In this document: positions 4,467 to 20,262 of the stretch, piece by piece
Numbering within the stretch: the first letter of the stretch is position 1
How the letters are laid out: each line of letters starts with the position of its first letter
Notes under the pieces: model-generated
Seen by the model: only the letters and a program-made list of their open reading frames with translations
What the model was told of the DNA's origin: nothing
Database searches by the model: none
Program-made: the position numbers and the translations under genes
Assembly (NCBI GenBank): GCA_036742645.1
Contig: DAINQQ010000001.1
Span: forward strand, 4,760 to 68,759
Length of the DNA stretch: 64,000 nt
Origin: Flavitalea sp.
GTDB taxonomy: Bacteria; Bacteroidota; Bacteroidia; Chitinophagales; Chitinophagaceae
Direction of reading: 5' to 3'

Positions 4467-5411
4467 CTACTTCTTAAGCCCGATTTCGCGCAGACGCTCG
4501 TCAAGATATTCCCCAGCAGTTGCATCGGGATAGGCCTTTGGATGGCTGGTATCGACGCAACTTTCAAGACATGCGAGGTCCATCTGACTTTTAGGATGGA
4601 GAAAAAATGGAATTGAGAAGCGGGAAGTGTGCCACATCTCCCGCTGAGGATTCACCACCCGGTGGGTGGTTGACTTAAGCCGGTTATTTGTGAGCCGTTG
4701 TAGCATATCTCCGACATTAACAACAATTTGCTCGGGTAGAGAGGTTACTCCAACCCATTCGTTTTGTTTGGTCAGTATCTGCAAACCATCAGCGGAAGCT
4801 CCTACCAAAAGTGTGATAAGGTTGATGTCTTCATGCTGCTCGGCCCGAATAGCGGATTTCGGCTCTGAGATTATTGGCGGATAATGAATAGCCCGAAGAA
4901 TAGAGTTGCCGTTATGAATGTGCTCATCAAAATACTGCTCGTCAAGACCCAGGTAGAGGGCAATTGCCTGCAATAACGCTTTTCCGGATTTTTCGAAAGC
5001 CCGATATGCTTTTTGGAAAGTGGGATTAAATTCTGGAATATCACCAACCTGAACGTTATCGGGATATTCTTTTTTTATCGGGTCGTTGTCATCAACCTTT
5101 TGACCATATTGGAAAAATTCTTTGAGATCCGGTGCATCACTTCCTTTAGCATGCTCTTTACCGAAAGACGTGTAGCCGCGTTGTCCGGCCAGACCGGATA
5201 CTTCATACTTTTTTTTCGTGTCGGAAGGCAGCGAAAAAAATCGCTGAACATATTTATAGAGATCTCCTATCAGGTCGTCGGGAATGCCATGATTTTTTAC
5301 TGCAACAAATCCAACATCTTCGTAAGCCTTTCCTAACTGCTGCACAAATGATTGTTTACGCTTTGGATCTCCTGACAAAAAATCGGCTAGATCAACGACT
5401 GGAATACCCAT
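4467..5411 (-). CDS. 2OG-Fe(II) oxygenase (isopenicillin N synthase-like family)
   Basis: 314-aa ORF. The N-terminal non-haem dioxygenase region is IPVVDL..GFV.V.NHGI. The H.D...H facial triad region is AEQHEDINLITLL ... TTHRV. Confidence 0.85.
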   Translation of the reverse strand: MGIPVVDLADFLSGDPKRKQSFVQQLGKAYEDVGFVAVKNHGIPDDLIGDLYKYVQRFFSLPSDTKKKYEVSGLAGQRGYTSFGKEHAKGSDAPDLKEFFQYGQKVDDNDPIKKEYPDNVQVGDIPEFNPTFQKAYRAFEKSGKALLQAIALYLGLDEQYFDEHIHNGNSILRAIHYPPIISEPKSAIRAEQHEDINLITLLVGASADGLQILTKQNEWVGVTSLPEQIVVNVGDMLQRLTNNRLKSTTHRVVNPQREMWHTSRFSIPFFLHPKSQMDLACLESCVDTSHPKAYPDATAGEYLDERLREIGLKK

Positions 5412-5472: not shown

Positions 5473-6513
5473 ATGCAAAGAAGTTTTTTATTGCTACTCT
5501 TTACTGCCCTCATCTTATTGCATTCATGCGCTCCAAAATACCAAAAGTATACTAGTAATTATCAGTTCCCTATATCTCAACAACCAGATTATTCCGATAT
5601 TAATTTCTGGGCTGCACATCCAAATAAACACGACCCGTCTGATAGTGTGCCCGCGCCATTGAAAAACAATTACAGGTACGATTCCACAGTGGATGTTTTC
5701 TTTCTGCACCCCACTACTCTTACCCAACAAGACACGAAGGCGTGGAATGCCGATCTTACAGACGCAGGCATCAATGCAAAAACAGATTATAGTACGATAT
5801 TATACCAGGCAAGTGCCTTTAATGAATACAGGGTTTTTGCGCCAAGATACAGGCAGGCTCATTTACGTTCATATTATTCTGGCAGCAAGAATGCTTCCAA
5901 TGCCTTTGATACTGCGTACGAGGATGTAAGGGCGGCCTTCTTGTATTACCTGGCTAACTACAACAATAATAGACCTTTCATCATCGCCAGTCATAGCCAG
6001 GGAACAACACACGCCATGCGTTTATTGAAAGAACTTGTTGAAGGCAAAACCGTTTCAAATCAACTTGTAGCTGCCTACCTGATCGGGATGTATATTCCAA
6101 ATAACTATTTCACTTCGATCCCAGTCTGCAGGGACTCTGTTCAGGTTGGGTGCGTATGCGCGTGGAGGAGCTTTCAAACAAACTATCTTCCAGCATTTGT
6201 CAAAAAGGAAAAAGAATTGAGTCTTGTCCTGAATCCATTGACATGGACTACCGAAAACATATATGCACCAAAAACGATGAATAAAGGTGCCGTGCTCCGC
6301 AACTTTAATAAAGTCTATTCCGGAGTCGCAGATGCAAAAATCAATAGTGGTGTTTTATGGATAACAAATCCAGACTTTCCCGGCAGCTTCTTTATTCGTA
6401 TAAAAAATTATCATATCGCCGACATCAATTTCTATTACTTAAATATCAGGGAAAATGTGAGACAGCGTGTTGAATCCTTCAAAGTAAAAGCCCATGCACC
6501 TGATCAAAAATAA
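5473..6513 (+). CDS. DUF3089-type alpha/beta hydrolase-like lipoprotein
   Basis: 346-aa ORF with a signal peptide and lipobox (LLHSC) and a nucleophile-elbow-like SHSQG. The overall pattern matches DUF3089 as I recall it. Confidence 0.7.
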   Translation: MQRSFLLLLFTALILLHSCAPKYQKYTSNYQFPISQQPDYSDINFWAAHPNKHDPSDSVPAPLKNNYRYDSTVDVFFLHPTTLTQQDTKAWNADLTDAGINAKTDYSTILYQASAFNEYRVFAPRYRQAHLRSYYSGSKNASNAFDTAYEDVRAAFLYYLANYNNNRPFIIASHSQGTTHAMRLLKELVEGKTVSNQLVAAYLIGMYIPNNYFTSIPVCRDSVQVGCVCAWRSFQTNYLPAFVKKEKELSLVLNPLTWTTENIYAPKTMNKGAVLRNFNKVYSGVADAKINSGVLWITNPDFPGSFFIRIKNYHIADINFYYLNIRENVRQRVESFKVKAHAPDQK

Positions 6514-15294: not shown

Positions 15295-15909
15295 CTATGG
15301 GATCACCCGTAACCGTTGGAGCTCTTGTCTGAATTGTTGCGGAGATTGAAAGTGTATGGTTGTAAATCCTAATTCAGCAGCCGGCAAGAGGTTGCGAGCA
15401 TTATCGTCAGTATAAATAGCCGTTGTCGGATTAATTTGAAAGCGCTCTATCAGGAATTGATAGATTTCCTTAAATGGTTTTCTTGTCTTTTCTTCTCCCG
15501 ACACTATTCTTCCATCGAACCAATGTAAAAAATCATAACGTTTCAAGGCTATTGGGAATGTTTCGTGACTCCAGTTGGTGAGGGCATAGAGACGATAATT
15601 CGTATTGTATCGCAGATATCTGAGAATTTCGACGGTTTCAGGTATAGGTCCGCGTAACATTTCCTCCCATCGATCATAGTATGCACGGATATTTTTTTCA
15701 TGCTCCGGAAATTTCCTAACCAAATCTTCAGTGGCTTCCCGTATGCTTCTTCCCGCATCCTGACTTTCGTTCCAATCGGGTGTACAAATGTTTTCATAGA
15801 ACCATTTCATTTCTTCCTCCTTATTGAAGATAGTCTTATACACATAATCGGGATTCCAATCAATCAATACACCACCCAGGTCGAAAACAATCGTATTAAA
15901 CTTAGACAT
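15295..15909 (-). CDS. HAD family hydrolase
   Basis: 204-aa ORF with HAD motif I (IVFDLGGVLIDW) and a C-terminal DD motif (IYTDDNARNL). Confidence 0.85.
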   Translation of the reverse strand: MSKFNTIVFDLGGVLIDWNPDYVYKTIFNKEEEMKWFYENICTPDWNESQDAGRSIREATEDLVRKFPEHEKNIRAYYDRWEEMLRGPIPETVEILRYLRYNTNYRLYALTNWSHETFPIALKRYDFLHWFDGRIVSGEEKTRKPFKEIYQFLIERFQINPTTAIYTDDNARNLLPAAELGFTTIHFQSPQQFRQELQRLRVIP

Positions 15910-15932
15910 GAAAAATATTTGGCTCCAAATGT

Positions 15933-16328
15933 CTATATAGTTTTCAACAATTCTTTTACTTTTTCTTCTATAAAATCACGCACTTTGTTAAACTCTTGCG
16001 GCTCCATATGTTTGGGATCAGGTACTTCCCAGTCGATAACTTTTTTTGCCGGCATCCAGGGACAGGCATCGCCGCATCCCATCGTAATCACCGCGTCGAA
16101 AGGAGCATATTGTTCAATCTCCGTTAAAGATTTTGAATTGTGGGTGCTGAGATCATACCCCAACTCTTTCATAGCCGCAATTGCTTTTGAATTTACTATA
16201 CCACTGGGTTTACTACCGGCGCTATAGGCTTCTATCTCATCCGTGCCATGTATTTTGGCGAATGCCTGGCTCATCTGGCTCCTATTGCTATTCTCAACGC
16301 AAACAAAAAGAAGTCTCTTTTTTTTCAT
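15933..16328 (-). CDS. arsC: Arsenate reductase, LMW-PTP type
   Basis: 131-aa ORF with the CX5R(S) P-loop LFVCVENSNRSQMS and downstream Cys residues (GCGDAC), typical of thioredoxin-coupled ArsC. Confidence 0.85.
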   Translation of the reverse strand: MKKKRLLFVCVENSNRSQMSQAFAKIHGTDEIEAYSAGSKPSGIVNSKAIAAMKELGYDLSTHNSKSLTEIEQYAPFDAVITMGCGDACPWMPAKKVIDWEVPDPKHMEPQEFNKVRDFIEEKVKELLKTI

Positions 16329-16543
16329 ATTTTATGAAGCTCTTTCCTCATTACATTGCTGTGGATGGCACACAGTGCTAAATTCCAATGAAGATTTTAT
16401 TGTTGCAGGCACACCCTCTCGATTGACCACAAAAAACCTTTCTTCGAAAAATGATGTTTGGCGCTCGTTGTGATCACAAGAGAGAAGTACGCTTCGTTCA
16501 GCGGCATTGAACTCCTCGGTTTTGACTTAGCACGATCGACAGG

Positions 16544-16579
16544 TTATAAATAAAGCAGGAGAACTTAACGTTCTCCTGC
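16544..16579 (-). terminator. Intrinsic terminator immediately after the Cys-rich micro-ORF
   Basis: A perfect 10-bp stem, GCAGGAGAAC (16555-16564) / GTTCTCCTGC (16570-16579), has a 5-nt loop. It starts 7 nt after the micro-ORF stop and is followed on the minus strand by UUUAUUUAUAA. Confidence 0.7.
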
Positions 16580-16586
16580 CGGTTTG

Positions 16587-16679
16587 TTAGCAGCATCCCA
16601 TTTCGGTCATACCGCTGCAACAGTCGCTTCCGGGCATGCAACAGCCTGGATCGTTCTGCATTTGATTGTTGTCTTTCAT
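16587..16679 (-). CDS. Candidate 30-aa Cys/Met-rich micro-protein (three CC doublets)
   Basis: Manual translation gives MKDNNQMQNDPGCCMPGSDCCSGMTEMGCC*. It runs from ATG 16679 to TAA 16587-16589. It lies between arsR and arsC, has a dedicated terminator, and is too short for the ORF track. Confidence 0.5.
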   Translation of the reverse strand: MKDNNQMQNDPGCCMPGSDCCSGMTEMGCC

Positions 16680-16769
16680 GATTACACTATTTATAGTTAG
16701 GAAATCTTTTTTAAATAATTCGCGCAAAGAGCTACGCCGTACAGAATGACGCCATCTGTTGCGCGGGTT

Positions 16770-17105
16770 TTAACAACAGGCTTTTTCGTTTTGAACTTTT
16801 AACCTGTTGAAAAGATCATTAAATTCTTTATTGAACTTTTCGAACGCCTTCCAATTAATACAATAGCACGAACGCGGACCGTCGATGGCTCCCTCAATTA
16901 AACCGGCGTTCCTCAACTCCTTCAAATGCTGTGACACGGTTGATTGAGCCAGGGGTAACATTTCAACCAATTCGCCGCAAATGCATTCATTGCGCTGGGC
17001 CAGGAGTTTTAAAATGGCTATCCGCGCCGGATGGGAAAGCGCCTTTGCGAAGTCTGCCAACTCCTGGTCCTTAATCCCAAACTCCTCTTTTTTATGTATT
17101 GCCAT
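16770..17105 (-). CDS. arsR: ArsR/SmtB family metalloregulator
   Basis: 111-aa ORF with an HTH ([14 protein letters not shown]), an ECICGELV metal-site motif, and the recognition helix [15 protein letters not shown]. It ends in ACC. Confidence 0.9.
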
Positions 17106-17221
17106 TCGATGAATTTAGTGATAAAAAAAGACGAACACGTCGCCCCCAAGCCATTCTATATCGCAAATATACGATTAACAAGTCCGGACAACCAAAAGTT
17201 TTTTTTCATAGTTTGTTCTTT

Positions 17222-18373
17222 TTATGTCAGCTTCTGAAGTTTTTCGACCGCCTGCTTCAGTGTCTCATCTTTCTTTGCGAAACAAAAGCGAATTACTTTA
17301 TTATCCGTACCCGCCTGGTAAAAAGCAGAGATGGGAATTGCTGCTACGCCAATTTCTTCTGTCATCCTGATGCAAAGATCTTTATCAGCTTCGTCACTAA
17401 TTCGATCATATTTATAGCATTGGAAATAGCTTCCATAACTCGGCAGCGGGGTAAATTTTGTTTGTTTCATCAACTCCTGGAAATAGTCGCGCTTGTTTTG
17501 CATAAAGTTGCTAAGACCGAGATACGAATCTTTGTTACCAAGAAATGTGGCAAGGCCAACTTGCGCTGGCGTGTTGCAGCTAAAGCAATTAAATTGATGC
17601 ACTTTCCTGAACTCCTTCATTAGTGGCGCCGATGAAATGCAATAACCGAGTTTCCAACCTGTACAATGGTATACTTTGCCAAAAGAGAAACAAACAAAGC
17701 TCCTGTTGAGCAGATCAGGATAACGTAAAATGGATTGGTGGGAAATGTTATCGAAGATCAGGTGTTCGTATACTTCGTCGGAAATGATGACGATGTTTGT
17801 TTCCTCAACAATTGATCTCAACTGCCCGATATCCTCCTCGCGAAGTACTGATCCTGTAGGATTATGGGGCGAATTGATCATTATGGCCCTGGTGCGCGGA
17901 TTAATCTTGGCGCGAACTATCTCCCAATCAATTTTATATTCAGGGAATTTCAGATCAATCAACACGGGCACAGCTCCATTGACCTCAACATTTGGAATAT
18001 AACTATCATAAGCAGGTTCAAAAATAATTACCTCGTCACCCGGTTGCAGAAACGTTGTTAGCGCTGTATAGATTGCATATGTCCCTCCCGGTGTGATCGT
18101 AATATCTGTCTCTGGATTGATCTTTGATTGATACAAAAATTCAATTTTACCGGAGATTGATTCCCGCAAGGGCTTCCAACCCGCCATGGGGGCATATTGA
18201 TTGTAGCCGCTTTCCATTGCCTGGTTGACCAATGTTGTTAATTCCTTGCTCATCGGATAATCCGGGAAGCCCTGTCCTAAATTGATCGCTTTGTTCTCTG
18301 TTGCCAAAGCGCTCATTACGGTGAAGATACTTATGTCCGTATCCGGCAACTTCGACTTGATTGTTGGATTCAT
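17222..18373 (-). CDS. PLP-dependent aminotransferase (methionine aminotransferase/YbdL-like, class I/II)
   Basis: 383-aa ORF with NLGQGFPD, INSPHNPTG and a SFGK PLP-lysine motif. Confidence 0.88.
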   Translation of the reverse strand: MNPTIKSKLPDTDISIFTVMSALATENKAINLGQGFPDYPMSKELTTLVNQAMESGYNQYAPMAGWKPLRESISGKIEFLYQSKINPETDITITPGGTYAIYTALTTFLQPGDEVIIFEPAYDSYIPNVEVNGAVPVLIDLKFPEYKIDWEIVRAKINPRTRAIMINSPHNPTGSVLREEDIGQLRSIVEETNIVIISDEVYEHLIFDNISHQSILRYPDLLNRSFVCFSFGKVYHCTGWKLGYCISSAPLMKEFRKVHQFNCFSCNTPAQVGLATFLGNKDSYLGLSNFMQNKRDYFQELMKQTKFTPLPSYGSYFQCYKYDRISDEADKDLCIRMTEEIGVAAIPISAFYQAGTDNKVIRFCFAKKDETLKQAVEKLQKLT

Positions 18374-18458: not shown

Positions 18459-19262
18459 TTATCCTTTGCATAGTATTTCATCAATTTCGCGAGGCAACAC
18501 GTGTGGCCAATATGAAGCATACTCCTCGATGGTTTCAGCAACGCGGCATTTTGTGATGCCCGGGTAAATTTTGTTCAGGGCCTCGGTTAAAACAACATAA
18601 GGACGATGCCCTGTTATGATCATTGATGATTGCTGGGGTCTTCTGATTATAAGGGTCGGAAAGCGATTGATTTCATGATAACGTACCTGCTGCATGTCCT
18701 GTTTAAAAGCATCAAGGCCTCTGTCGTGATGCAAATCCTCTTCGAATATTTTTAGATCAAACAAAGGAAGTTCTTTTTTAAGTTCCCGTGCCACTTCGAT
18801 CAGCACTTCCTGCCTCGCAACGTTATTTCCTTTTATCATTACTTCCTCCCGTAGTAACCGCAAACATCTATCTCCGGCGTGGAAAGATTGTAAGCCGGCG
18901 CACTTTACGGCTATACATGCCGGATATGATGAGGCAGGCGGATCTTTCATCCAGATATTATGTTGTATCGGCATTCCAGATAGCTGCGCTGCATGCATCC
19001 ACACCGGCCCCATTTGTATAGGTCTGCTCACCGAATTAACAGGGTCATGAAAGTTCTTCCATCCCGGGAGCAATCCACCCATGCAGTACCTGTAGCTGAT
19101 CTTATCCCCGTATTCAAACAACAGTTTGCGCCACTGCGGTTCAAAGGCCCAGCTCCAGCAGCAAAGCGGATCAGTGTAGTACGTAATGTCCACACCGTCC
19201 GCTTTTGTATCTCTGTATGGTTGATTATTTTCTGTTCCGGGCTGGCTTTGACCTGGTGCCAT
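18459..19262 (-). CDS. DsbA-family thioredoxin-fold protein
   Basis: 267-aa ORF with TYYTDPLCCWSWAFEP at the position of the DsbA/FrnE active site. Its ATG at 19262 overlaps the catalase 3' end by 38 nt. Confidence 0.7.
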   Translation of the reverse strand: MAPGQSQPGTENNQPYRDTKADGVDITYYTDPLCCWSWAFEPQWRKLLFEYGDKISYRYCMGGLLPGWKNFHDPVNSVSRPIQMGPVWMHAAQLSGMPIQHNIWMKDPPASSYPACIAVKCAGLQSFHAGDRCLRLLREEVMIKGNNVARQEVLIEVARELKKELPLFDLKIFEEDLHHDRGLDAFKQDMQQVRYHEINRFPTLIIRRPQQSSMIITGHRPYVVLTEALNKIYPGITKCRVAETIEEYASYWPHVLPREIDEILCKG

Positions 19263-20262
19263 CTGATGTTTTTTGCTTCAAATTAGTAGCACTGTCCGTG
19301 CCATCCGCGTCATAGTCCGTCGGTTTATTCCATTGCTGCGGGCCCATTGGAGATGCGCTGTTTATTTCGGAGCTTCTAAGTTTGCTTAGCTCTTCGTTCA
19401 TTTCCTGAACCATTTCCTCTGTTCTGCCCGTACCCTGTGGTTGCTGGTCGAGTAACTGGTTCGTTTCCATTACATGCCTGATCGGATCCTCAATAAACTG
19501 GAAAGTCTCCCCAAGTCTTGTACTCTGTCCTTCGTTCCAGGGTCCACGATAGTCATTTCCACTAGACATATTAAAATACAAATTGCTATACCTCGGATCG
19601 CTTTGTAGAATACCTGGAGGGAAATTGGGTTGGATGGATTCTAGGGCAGCTTCAAACATCTGAAAGTGCGCAACCTCCCTCGTCATTAAAAATCTCAGGG
19701 TTTCTTTTACATGGGGATCATCTGTAAACTGCAGCAGGTATTCGTACACGAGCTTAGCTCTCGTCTCAGCCCCAACATTTGACCTGAGATCTGAAGTAAG
19801 GTCGCCTTGGACATCTCCGTTTATATAAGCGGCTGTCCAGGGCACACCCTGACTGTTTGTATAAGCCGGACCTCCTGCTGTACCGACAAACAACTGGGGA
19901 GCCGTCATCCCCTGATGGATCACTTCTTCTTTAGCCGCTTTTCCATTTAGCAATTTCATGATCTCTGACTTCTCTGCAGCATTTTTCAGATCGCCATTTA
20001 TCCCCGTTAGTAACATTTGAATGGTGGCTCCTACTATTTCGAGGTGACTGAATTCTTCAGTAGCAATGTCCATTAGCAGATCGTATTTATCCGGATAAGG
20101 ATTTTTTGCACCGAAGGCTTGCCCGAAATATCGTAAAGCAGCAGCAAGCTCGCCATTAGCACCGCCGAATTGCTCAAGCAATAAGGTAGCAAACGCAGGG
20201 TCAGGTTTTGACACCCTTGCGTTGAATTGCAATTCTTTCACATGGTAAAACATAGAAAACAT
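19225..20262 (-). CDS. Manganese catalase
   Basis: 345-aa ORF with the Mn-catalase N-terminus (FYHVKELQF.....PDP.FA..LLEQFGG..GEL.AALRYF) and the EE.HLE metal ligand region. Confidence 0.92.
   Translation of the reverse strand: MFSMFYHVKELQFNARVSKPDPAFATLLLEQFGGANGELAAALRYFGQAFGAKNPYPDKYDLLMDIATEEFSHLEIVGATIQMLLTGINGDLKNAAEKSEIMKLLNGKAAKEEVIHQGMTAPQLFVGTAGGPAYTNSQGVPWTAAYINGDVQGDLTSDLRSNVGAETRAKLVYEYLLQFTDDPHVKETLRFLMTREVAHFQMFEAALESIQPNFPPGILQSDPRYSNLYFNMSSGNDYRGPWNEGQSTRLGETFQFIEDPIRHVMETNQLLDQQPQGTGRTEEMVQEMNEELSKLRSSEINSASPMGPQQWNKPTDYDADGTDSATNLKQKTSDGTRSKPARNRK

Follow-up and report, generated by a model that had tools for sequence, protein, structure and literature searches.

As(III) is held in bacterial arsenic-resistance (ars) proteins by three thiolates from vicinal Cys pairs, as in ArsD (Cys12/13/18, 112/113 and 119/120), and a C-terminal As(III) site is found in the A. 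ferrooxidans ArsR (Cys95/96/102). ArsD is a thioredoxin-fold protein of roughly 120 aa, encoded in ars operons, that partners the ArsA ATPase. In the smtA-smtB system the two genes are divergent, and a small Cys-rich metallothionein is found next to its ArsR/SmtB-family sensor. Two RNA-level systems are also relevant here. The polycysteine small open reading frames (sORFs) of mycobacteria are leaderless and precede cysteine-metabolism genes, and RNA pairing sequesters the downstream ribosome-binding site (10.1101/834739). In the ars1 operon of Bacillus sp. CDB3, an internal hairpin attenuator lowers the expression of the long transcript (PMC4562236). Here, a 30-codon micro-open reading frame (micro-ORF) located between arsR and arsC of Flavitalea sp. 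is compared with these systems. It lies in a stretch of 64,000 nt (assembly GCA_036742645.1, contig DAINQQ010000001.1, positions 4,760 to 68,759), which is referred to as the window and numbered from its first letter. The micro-ORF was found to belong to a conserved family of Chitinophagaceae ars clusters, and its product may be an arsenite-binding peptide.

The micro-ORF is on the minus strand at 16587..16679 (ATG from 16679, TAA at 16589-16587) and encodes MKDNNQMQNDPGCCMPGSDCCSGMTEMGCC, a peptide with six Cys arranged as three CC doublets, five Met and no His. Its ATG lies 90 nt past the arsR stop (16772-16770), and a search of all six frames over the 64 kb found it to be the only ORF of the CC..CC-stop type. 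A preliminary description of this locus had reported the same coordinates, Cys and Met counts and 90-nt gap, and a perfect 10-bp stem 7 nt past the stop, all of which were re-found. A scan with the ArsR protein, taking one genome per species, yielded 80 orthologous loci from Chitinophagaceae, Ferruginibacter or unclassified Bacteroidota, in which ArsR is 79-85% identical, and the window was counted as the 81st. Intact micro-ORF homologues of 19-38 aa were present in 36 of these 81 ars loci, the window included. Ferruginibacter sp. SUN106 (L033), the single isolate among the genomes, has no copy. They are 36 distinct nucleotide sequences from different species, and every length difference among them is in frame; three further loci carry single Cys substitutions. 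The consensus is M[NK]TN..Q(K/N)DP(G)CC-x5-CC-x5-8-GCC-stop, with a two-pair subtype DPGNGGCCGG..DWGCC-stop, and the window copy is, by its Cys spacing of CC-x5-CC-x7-CC-COOH, a three-pair member of this conserved Chitinophagaceae ars-cluster peptide family.

The substitutions among the 36 copies follow a coding pattern. The reading frame is open in 36/36 only in the sense frame. The entropies summed over codon positions 1, 2 and 3 were 15.8, 18.8 and 31.7, respectively, the wobble position being about twice as variable, and the pooled ratio of nonsynonymous to synonymous differences (pN/pS) was 0.40 in frame vs. 1.57 and 0.91 in the shifted frames, with pS saturated at 0.70. The four Cys columns are invariant with both TGC and TGT in use, and all four codons are found in the conserved columns of Pro and Gly. 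In-frame conservation over 36 distinct sequences, together with this substitution pattern, places the micro-ORF beyond chance, and as judged from its sequence evolution it is a real conserved coding micro-gene. Both checks proposed in the preliminary description, namely a search for stops or frameshifts in relatives and a test for synonymous-biased substitution, came out in favor of coding, the former with 36 intact copies and the latter with the in-frame pN/pS and the invariant Cys columns. The Met-richness is peculiar to the window copy, as the nearest subtype (P0078) carries M15L and M24L.

At E<=10, the peptide matched no Pfam or NCBIfam model. When 5.8 billion clustered proteins were searched with a profile whose first row was a 46-aa TTG-extended version of the ORF (the extension is not claimed as real), at least 75 clusters were returned, all unnamed or annotated as 'hypothetical protein' and none with a Pfam domain; the preliminary description, which could not assign the peptide to a named family, is supported on this point. 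Many of these database relatives had been over-extended at the N-terminus by gene callers, into an alternative frame of the arsM 3′ end. In an exhaustive HMMER search, only 34 of 1.84 billion representatives reached E<=0.001; all are short peptides, with no large-protein relative among them, and the family is thus narrow. A profile search against the PDB hit only 24-residue granulin fragments (E 0.011-8), and these matches were judged compositional because the peptide is bacterial and cytosolic and has no signal peptide. One database relative of 100 aa (P0085) starts with a CobW/COG0523-like P-loop N-terminal fragment (GFLGSGKTTL ... GCLCG) that is followed by a micro-ORF-like tail, NQKDPGCCEPGSECCGNITEWGCC, and is a chimera from assembly or, alternatively, a natural protein in which the Cys-pair module is fused to part of a metallochaperone. 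An RNA family was also considered and set aside, as within 15800-17400 the sole Rfam match was an archaeal small RNA below threshold (17 bits vs. a gathering score of 78).

In the relatives, the usual order on one strand is arsR, sometimes ArsN2, arsM, about 30 nt of spacer, the micro-ORF, a hairpin and the next ars gene. The latter is arsC, acr3, an ArsN1-like GNAT gene or a MIP channel gene, and in most loci starts 45-70 nt past the micro-ORF stop. The micro-ORF is directly 3′ of arsR in the window and six other loci and follows arsM in most relatives, coexisting with an intact arsM in about 29 loci. Hence the earlier placing of the micro-ORF between arsR and arsC holds for the window but missed the arsM link. 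Among the loci found by the peptide search, the order is arsR, micro-ORF, arsC in L081-L084; arsR, micro-ORF, DUF6428, metallophosphoesterase, GNAT, MIP, arsC in L085; and arsR, micro-ORF, GNAT, arsC in L086 and L087. In L088, the closest relative of the window, arsR, the micro-ORF and the hairpin are followed by an ORF that starts, like ArsM, with MNTDIKELVKAK. All copies, including those from the peptide search, belong to ars clusters, with arsR or arsM immediately 5′ and arsC, acr3, ArsN, MIP or DUF6428 on the 3′ side, and wherever a relative offers enough sequence, the micro-ORF never closes its cluster. Maturase genes were absent from all of about 90 loci, exporter and protease genes were likewise never seen with the micro-ORF, and the mapped loci had no arsA.

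The co-encoded ArsM ends in ...KDDRNCCEPGSGCC-COOH (NCCEPGSGCC-stop). This non-catalytic Cys tail is outside the region covered by the ArsM profile (NF008823, residues 3-272 of 285), and its motif recurs as the core of the peptide, GCCEPGSxCC. The start regions of the two genes are alike as well. The 13-16 nt before the micro-ORF ATG (AAAAGTAWAGCC) are near-invariant among the members despite saturated synonymous sites, and the family 5′ consensus is T-rich and then reads ATAAAWAGTAWAGCC directly before the ATG. In the window, this conserved 5′ flank, which is common to arsM, is TTTCCTAACTATAAATAGTGTAATC (16680..16709, minus strand), and it is probably the translation-initiation region. The string AAAAGTAWAGCC-ATG-AAC had 47 hits vs. 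0.3 expected in 1.19 Mb, essentially only before the micro-ORF and arsM, and this initiation block precedes arsM in 13 loci. Within the same locus, arsM and the micro-ORF were 55% identical over -20..+24, compared with 39 ± 7% for other gene starts, and their first residues are similar (MNTN in the peptide, MNNE in ArsM). Further, in L022 and L047 the GCC-stop of arsM is followed by the same hairpin that L008 and L066 have after the micro-ORF. Direct DNA similarity between the micro-ORF and the ArsM tail was significant in 3/11 loci tested (L014, L039 and L017), so it is chiefly the common 5′ block and the identical motif that support miniaturization. The simplest reading of these sequence likenesses would be that the micro-ORF is a miniaturized arsM, in which the start region, the terminator and a partly reduplicated Cys tail were retained and which is now a gene of its own. 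The peptide (...QKDPGCCEPGSxCC...GCC-COOH) thus resembles ArsM in core motif, initiation block, first residues and, in some loci, terminator, but it lacks the methyltransferase domain, has no domain match, contains a Cys pair that is additional or rearranged, and is encoded by an independent gene.

Cys-pair endings are found on other proteins of these clusters. ArsR of all these loci ends in ACC-COOH, and in L072 (4349-4828) a 157-aa protein encoded after arsR ends in SCCTPGGGCC-COOH, which is the same CC-x5-CC module. The L072 protein was taken as DUF6428 by position and length, the Pfam DUF6428 match being only on the 157-aa product of L085 5178-5651. Given such endings on ArsM, DUF6428 (L072) and ArsR, ars proteins in this lineage habitually carry a Cys-pair module at the C-terminus. 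A G-rich palindromic element (e.g., GGGAGAGGGGTTGGGGTGAGGCCC or CCCCTTTATGGGGTTGGGGGC) was also observed just 5′ of the micro-ORF initiation block in L015 (about 4480-4505 and 5525-5550, there also 5′ of arsM), L063, L079, L002, L024, L051, L026 and L073, and looks like a small repeated element, similar to repetitive extragenic palindromic (REP) sequences, or an extra hairpin.

In the window, the micro-ORF is followed on the minus strand by a GC-rich hairpin at 16554..16580, which has 11 pairs (10 perfect plus one G-U; six G-C), the loop GTTAA and a folding free energy of about -19 kcal/mol. The hairpin begins 6-7 nt past the stop, and a T-rich tail, TTATTTATAA (16544..16553), is directly 3′ of the stem. 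It is predicted to be an intrinsic (Rho-independent) terminator, with the GC-rich stem-loop and T tract conserved as a structure. A uniform rule was applied, in which a terminator-like hairpin had to start <=15 nt past the stop. By this rule a hairpin follows 30/36 micro-ORFs; in 4 of the other 6 a hairpin is obvious, but its tail or loop does not satisfy the strict criteria. For arsM, the counts were 7/39 in micro-ORF-less loci and 0/29 where a micro-ORF comes next, and for arsR 1/80, the difference between the micro-ORF and the arsM of micro-ORF-less loci having a Fisher p of about 1e-8. The spacing from stop to hairpin is 0-11 nt in 31/36. Stem sequences vary between loci, and compensatory double changes were found at 7/12 pairs among nine alignable loci; in comparison with L088 the loop is changed and the stem is kept. 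The compensatory changes and the kept stem argue that the hairpin structure is under selection, so the terminator-like hairpin that the preliminary description assigned to the micro-ORF is present and conserved as a structure.

In contrast, its suggestion that arsR and the micro-ORF form a closed transcription unit is doubtful, because a further same-strand ars gene is always downstream, usually at 45-70 nt. In most loci only about 20 nt are left between the hairpin and the next ars gene. A scan of the window with the consensus pattern found no Bacteroidota-type promoter in the 258-nt spacer that contains the hairpin and ends at arsC. We infer that the hairpin would instead act as a leaky internal terminator in the ars cluster. 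It would then resemble the hairpin of Bacillus sp. CDB3 ars1, which is also of the Rho-independent type and separates promoter-proximal from distal genes inside an ars operon; the Bacillus hairpin, however, is between arsC and arsD and no micro-ORF precedes it (PMC4562236). After the hairpin, about 20 nt 5′ of the arsC ATG, a conserved CTTTAYCTTTACC motif was seen in L002, L006, L008, L016, L022, L047, L066, L007 and L003. This motif contains CTTTAC, complementary to the GTAAAG of the micro-ORF/arsM initiation block, and the complementarity may be coincidence, long-range pairing or a shared regulatory site.

With a probability of about 0.5, we infer that the micro-ORF is translated in vivo into an ArsR-controlled cytosolic peptide whose vicinal Cys pairs bind trivalent arsenic, as an inducible buffer or a hand-off chaperone. 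Such a peptide of 19-38 residues would be polar, probably unstructured and cytosolic, and its ligands would be the two or three vicinal Cys pairs, which always end in a free ...GCC-COOH. The bound species would be As(III), possibly also methyl-As(III) or Sb(III), and the peptide would serve the other ars proteins by buffering or by handing its cargo over. The hairpin would end most arsR-(arsM)-peptide transcripts, and the regulator and the peptide would be more abundant than the products of distal genes such as arsC and acr3, which would be reached by read-through. As(III) is proposed as the ligand because the ars context is invariable and the core is identical to the ArsM tail, and the arsenic-binding step rests on the established vicinal-Cys chemistry of ArsD and C-terminal ArsR sites. 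The peptide shares with ArsD its encoding in ars operons, vicinal Cys pairs as presumed As(III) ligands and a proposed role in capture and hand-over; in contrast to the larger, folded ArsD, however, it has only 19-38 aa, no expected fold and no profile match. The preliminary description had offered a soft-metal buffer or metallochaperone as possible roles. Of these, a thiol-based buffer or chaperone for soft metal(loid)s is the best reading, while a Met/Cys site of the Cu type is unsupported, since the Met-richness is not kept even in the nearest subtype.

Several points weigh against the arsenite-binding peptide. Only ~45% of the orthologous loci carry the micro-ORF, and decayed copies exist. 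A frameshift is found in L021 (about 4443+, after arsM), the start codon is lost in L003 (5222-5308), where the ORF lies in frame directly after the arsM stop, and altered C-termini are found in P0033 (stop-loss extension), P0042 (frameshift) and P0056 (a frameshift that fuses it to arsC). With such occurrence and decay, the gene may be dispensable in some lineages, or the decayed copies may be errors in metagenome-assembled genomes. A peptide so small may also be unstable unless metal-bound, its origin from arsM could partly reflect convergence on a shared motif, and a full-text literature search found no description of it. The never-last position and the stop always abutting the hairpin fit a cis-regulatory role as well. 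Moreover, L088 (3813-4013) and the window differ at 2/123 nt over the ORF plus the 30 nt 5′ of it (1/30 in this flank alone), vs. 29/336 for arsR and 12/60 for the distal spacer (Fisher p about 0.01 for the ORF vs. arsR). Synonymous sites look constrained in this comparison, which hints at constraint beyond the amino-acid sequence.

These last points lead to a cis-acting explanation, which we consider possible but on balance unlikely, namely that the micro-ORF is a leader or attenuator sORF whose translation controls terminator read-through into the downstream ars genes. A ribosome paused on the terminal Cys-Cys codons or the stop would occlude the stem base, which starts 4-11 nt further 3′, and suppress termination, with the pause caused by scarce Cys-tRNA under arsenite or thiol stress or by As(III) that binds the Cys pairs of the nascent chain. 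The peptide would be a by-product, or would have both roles, as the attenuator and buffer models are not exclusive. The locus has the features of this class, i.e., CC doublets, a hairpin 0-11 nt past the stop and same-strand genes downstream. That ars genes always follow, that the hairpin occurs so preferentially with the micro-ORF (30/36 vs. 7/39) and at so tight a spacing (31/36), and that it fills most of the 45-70 nt gap to the next start are all consistent with attenuation, as are the invariant terminal GCC-stop, the unusually high nucleotide conservation relative to L088 and, in the window, the lack of a Bacteroidota-type promoter between the hairpin and arsC. Precedents are found in both the mycobacterial polycysteine sORFs (10.1101/834739) and the Bacillus ars hairpin attenuator (PMC4562236). 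However, no antiterminator was found, as pairing between the ORF and the 5′ arm of the stem was no better than in shuffled sequences (mean z -0.2, 0/36 below -2). Non-Cys residues are conserved (D-P, the G before the last CC and the N-terminal MNTN), none of which is needed by a simple codon-sensing leader, and the match to the ArsM protein tail is conserved too. The same short spacing is found after full-length arsM (L022, L047 and others), indicating that the stop-to-hairpin geometry is not special to an sORF. As in the polycysteine sORFs, a short ORF with consecutive Cys codons lies 5′ of operonic genes with RNA structure in between; but, unlike them, the micro-ORF has a conserved 5′ block, conserved non-Cys residues, no alternative pairing, and downstream genes that are related to arsenic rather than to cysteine metabolism.

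A combination of the two roles, which we hold to be doubtful, would make the micro-ORF a sensor and an effector at once. A ribosome stalled at Cys-Cys-stop, 4-11 nt from the terminator stem, would melt the stem base and allow read-through to arsC, acr3 and the other distal genes, and the released peptide would buffer As(III). The stall might be triggered by the nascent or just-completed Cys-pair peptide, or by arsenite-caused depletion of Cys-tRNA. Such a device, to which we would attach the same doubt, would be a metalloid-responsive, ribosome-mediated antitermination on top of ArsR repression.

It is improbable that the peptide is a metallothionein-like binder of soft metals in general (Cu(I), Cd(II) or Zn(II)) instead of arsenic, comparable to SmtA in smtB-smtA. 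Like SmtA, the peptide is small, Cys-rich, predicted to bind metal and encoded next to an ArsR/SmtB-family regulator, and the window copy has five Met. However, it shows no sequence relation to SmtA and no match to the bacterial metallothionein (SmtA/BmtA) profile, whose family is roughly 55 aa vs. 19-38 aa for the peptide. It also lacks the His ligands and zinc-finger-like fold, its Met are not conserved and its core is the ArsM tail. All copies are among arsenic-specific genes (arsM, arsC, acr3, ArsN and DUF6428), not in a Zn/Cd context, and the micro-ORF is co-directional with and downstream of the regulator instead of divergent from it. The smtB-smtA pairing invoked in the preliminary description is thus useful as a functional analogy only, and kinship with that family is absent.

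It is very improbable that the micro-ORF is a non-functional scar of an arsM deletion or duplication that by chance is still open. The 5′ block, first codons, tail and terminator in common with arsM would fit such a scar, as would the usual arsM position that the micro-ORF takes in the window and six loci, the lack of arsM in the window and the decay of some copies. But the micro-ORF coexists with intact arsM in about 29 loci, and all copies have one common architecture rather than independent deletion junctions. The scar fails on the selection test, as four Cys columns stay invariant and pN/pS is 0.40 at a saturated pS of 0.70, with the ORF intact in 36 species. Finally, a RiPP (ribosomally synthesized and post-translationally modified peptide) precursor, as the preliminary description had also suggested, or a secreted disulfide-rich peptide would suit a short Cys-rich product with a weak compositional CC-doublet match to granulin in the PDB (E = 0.011), but is extremely improbable, as radical-SAM, YcaO, lanthipeptide or other maturases, proteases and exporters are absent from all mapped loci (no maturase in about 90), the peptide has no signal peptide, no leader/core organization and no match to an NCBIfam RiPP model such as that of the SCIFF-type Cys-rich peptides, and granulins are eukaryotic extracellular modules.

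In the window, the arsR gene (16770..17105, minus strand; NF033788 at 72.5 bits, PF01022) encodes an ArsR/SmtB metalloregulator of 111 aa, with a CxC within the DNA-binding region and a C-terminus of ...KACC-COOH. The next same-strand gene, 258 nt past the micro-ORF stop, is arsC (15933..16328, minus strand; PF01451), encoding an arsenate reductase of the low-molecular-weight protein tyrosine phosphatase type, and directly 3′ of it is a gene for a HAD-family (HAD-IA) hydrolase (15295..15909, minus strand). A homologue of the latter, 74% identical, is directly 3′ of the micro-ORF and hairpin in L071, which suggests an accessory role for the HAD gene in the ars clusters of this lineage. Neither arsM nor acr3 was found in the 64-kb window by tblastn.

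Bacteroides promoters have the consensus TTTG, 19-21 nt, TAnnTTTG. A candidate Bacteroidota-type promoter of arsR, as a pattern match only, was located at 17164..17196 on the minus strand (TTTG at 17196-17193, a 20-21 nt spacer and TATATTTG at 17171-17164), and it was the sole such match on the minus strand within 16250-17260. Matches to the sigma-70 consensus were set aside because that consensus is unsuited to the host phylum. A second terminator-like hairpin was observed at 17127-17147 on the minus strand, with eight pairs followed by TTTTTAT and a T-run to about 17120. It lies between the -7 box of the arsR promoter candidate (17171-17164) and the arsR ATG (17105), and may be in the arsR 5′ leader or may terminate transcription of the aminotransferase gene upstream of it (stop at 17222). 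Further 5′ of the aminotransferase gene and arsR, a Mn-catalase gene (19225-20262) overlaps a Thioredoxin_5/DsbA-like gene (18459-19262) by 38 nt on the minus strand; this arrangement is repeated in L088 (330-2127), giving a conserved oxidative-stress pair that adjoins the ars cluster.

Taken together, the micro-ORF represents a family of micro-proteins that is conserved, unannotated and restricted to the ars clusters of Chitinophagaceae, and that was apparently born from arsM. Its peptide would work like a thiol-based metalloid buffer or chaperone but belongs to none of the metallothionein, ArsD and RiPP families. The ars operons are among the best-catalogued bacterial detoxification systems, yet this gene, present in about half of the Chitinophagaceae ars clusters, had no name, no family model and no literature that we found. 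The Chitinophagaceae genomes compared here are mostly from soil, sludge and freshwater metagenomes. The constant pairing of the micro-ORF with an operon-internal terminator offers a case in which post-initiation control of ars operons in Bacteroidota can be tested, and the apparent miniaturization of arsM is a clear example of a micro-protein gene arising from an enzyme gene. Were As(III) binding confirmed, the peptide would stand beside the phytochelatin-type thiol buffers as an inducible analogue encoded by a gene, and would be the smallest ars component known, with possible use in biosensing or as bioremediation tags.

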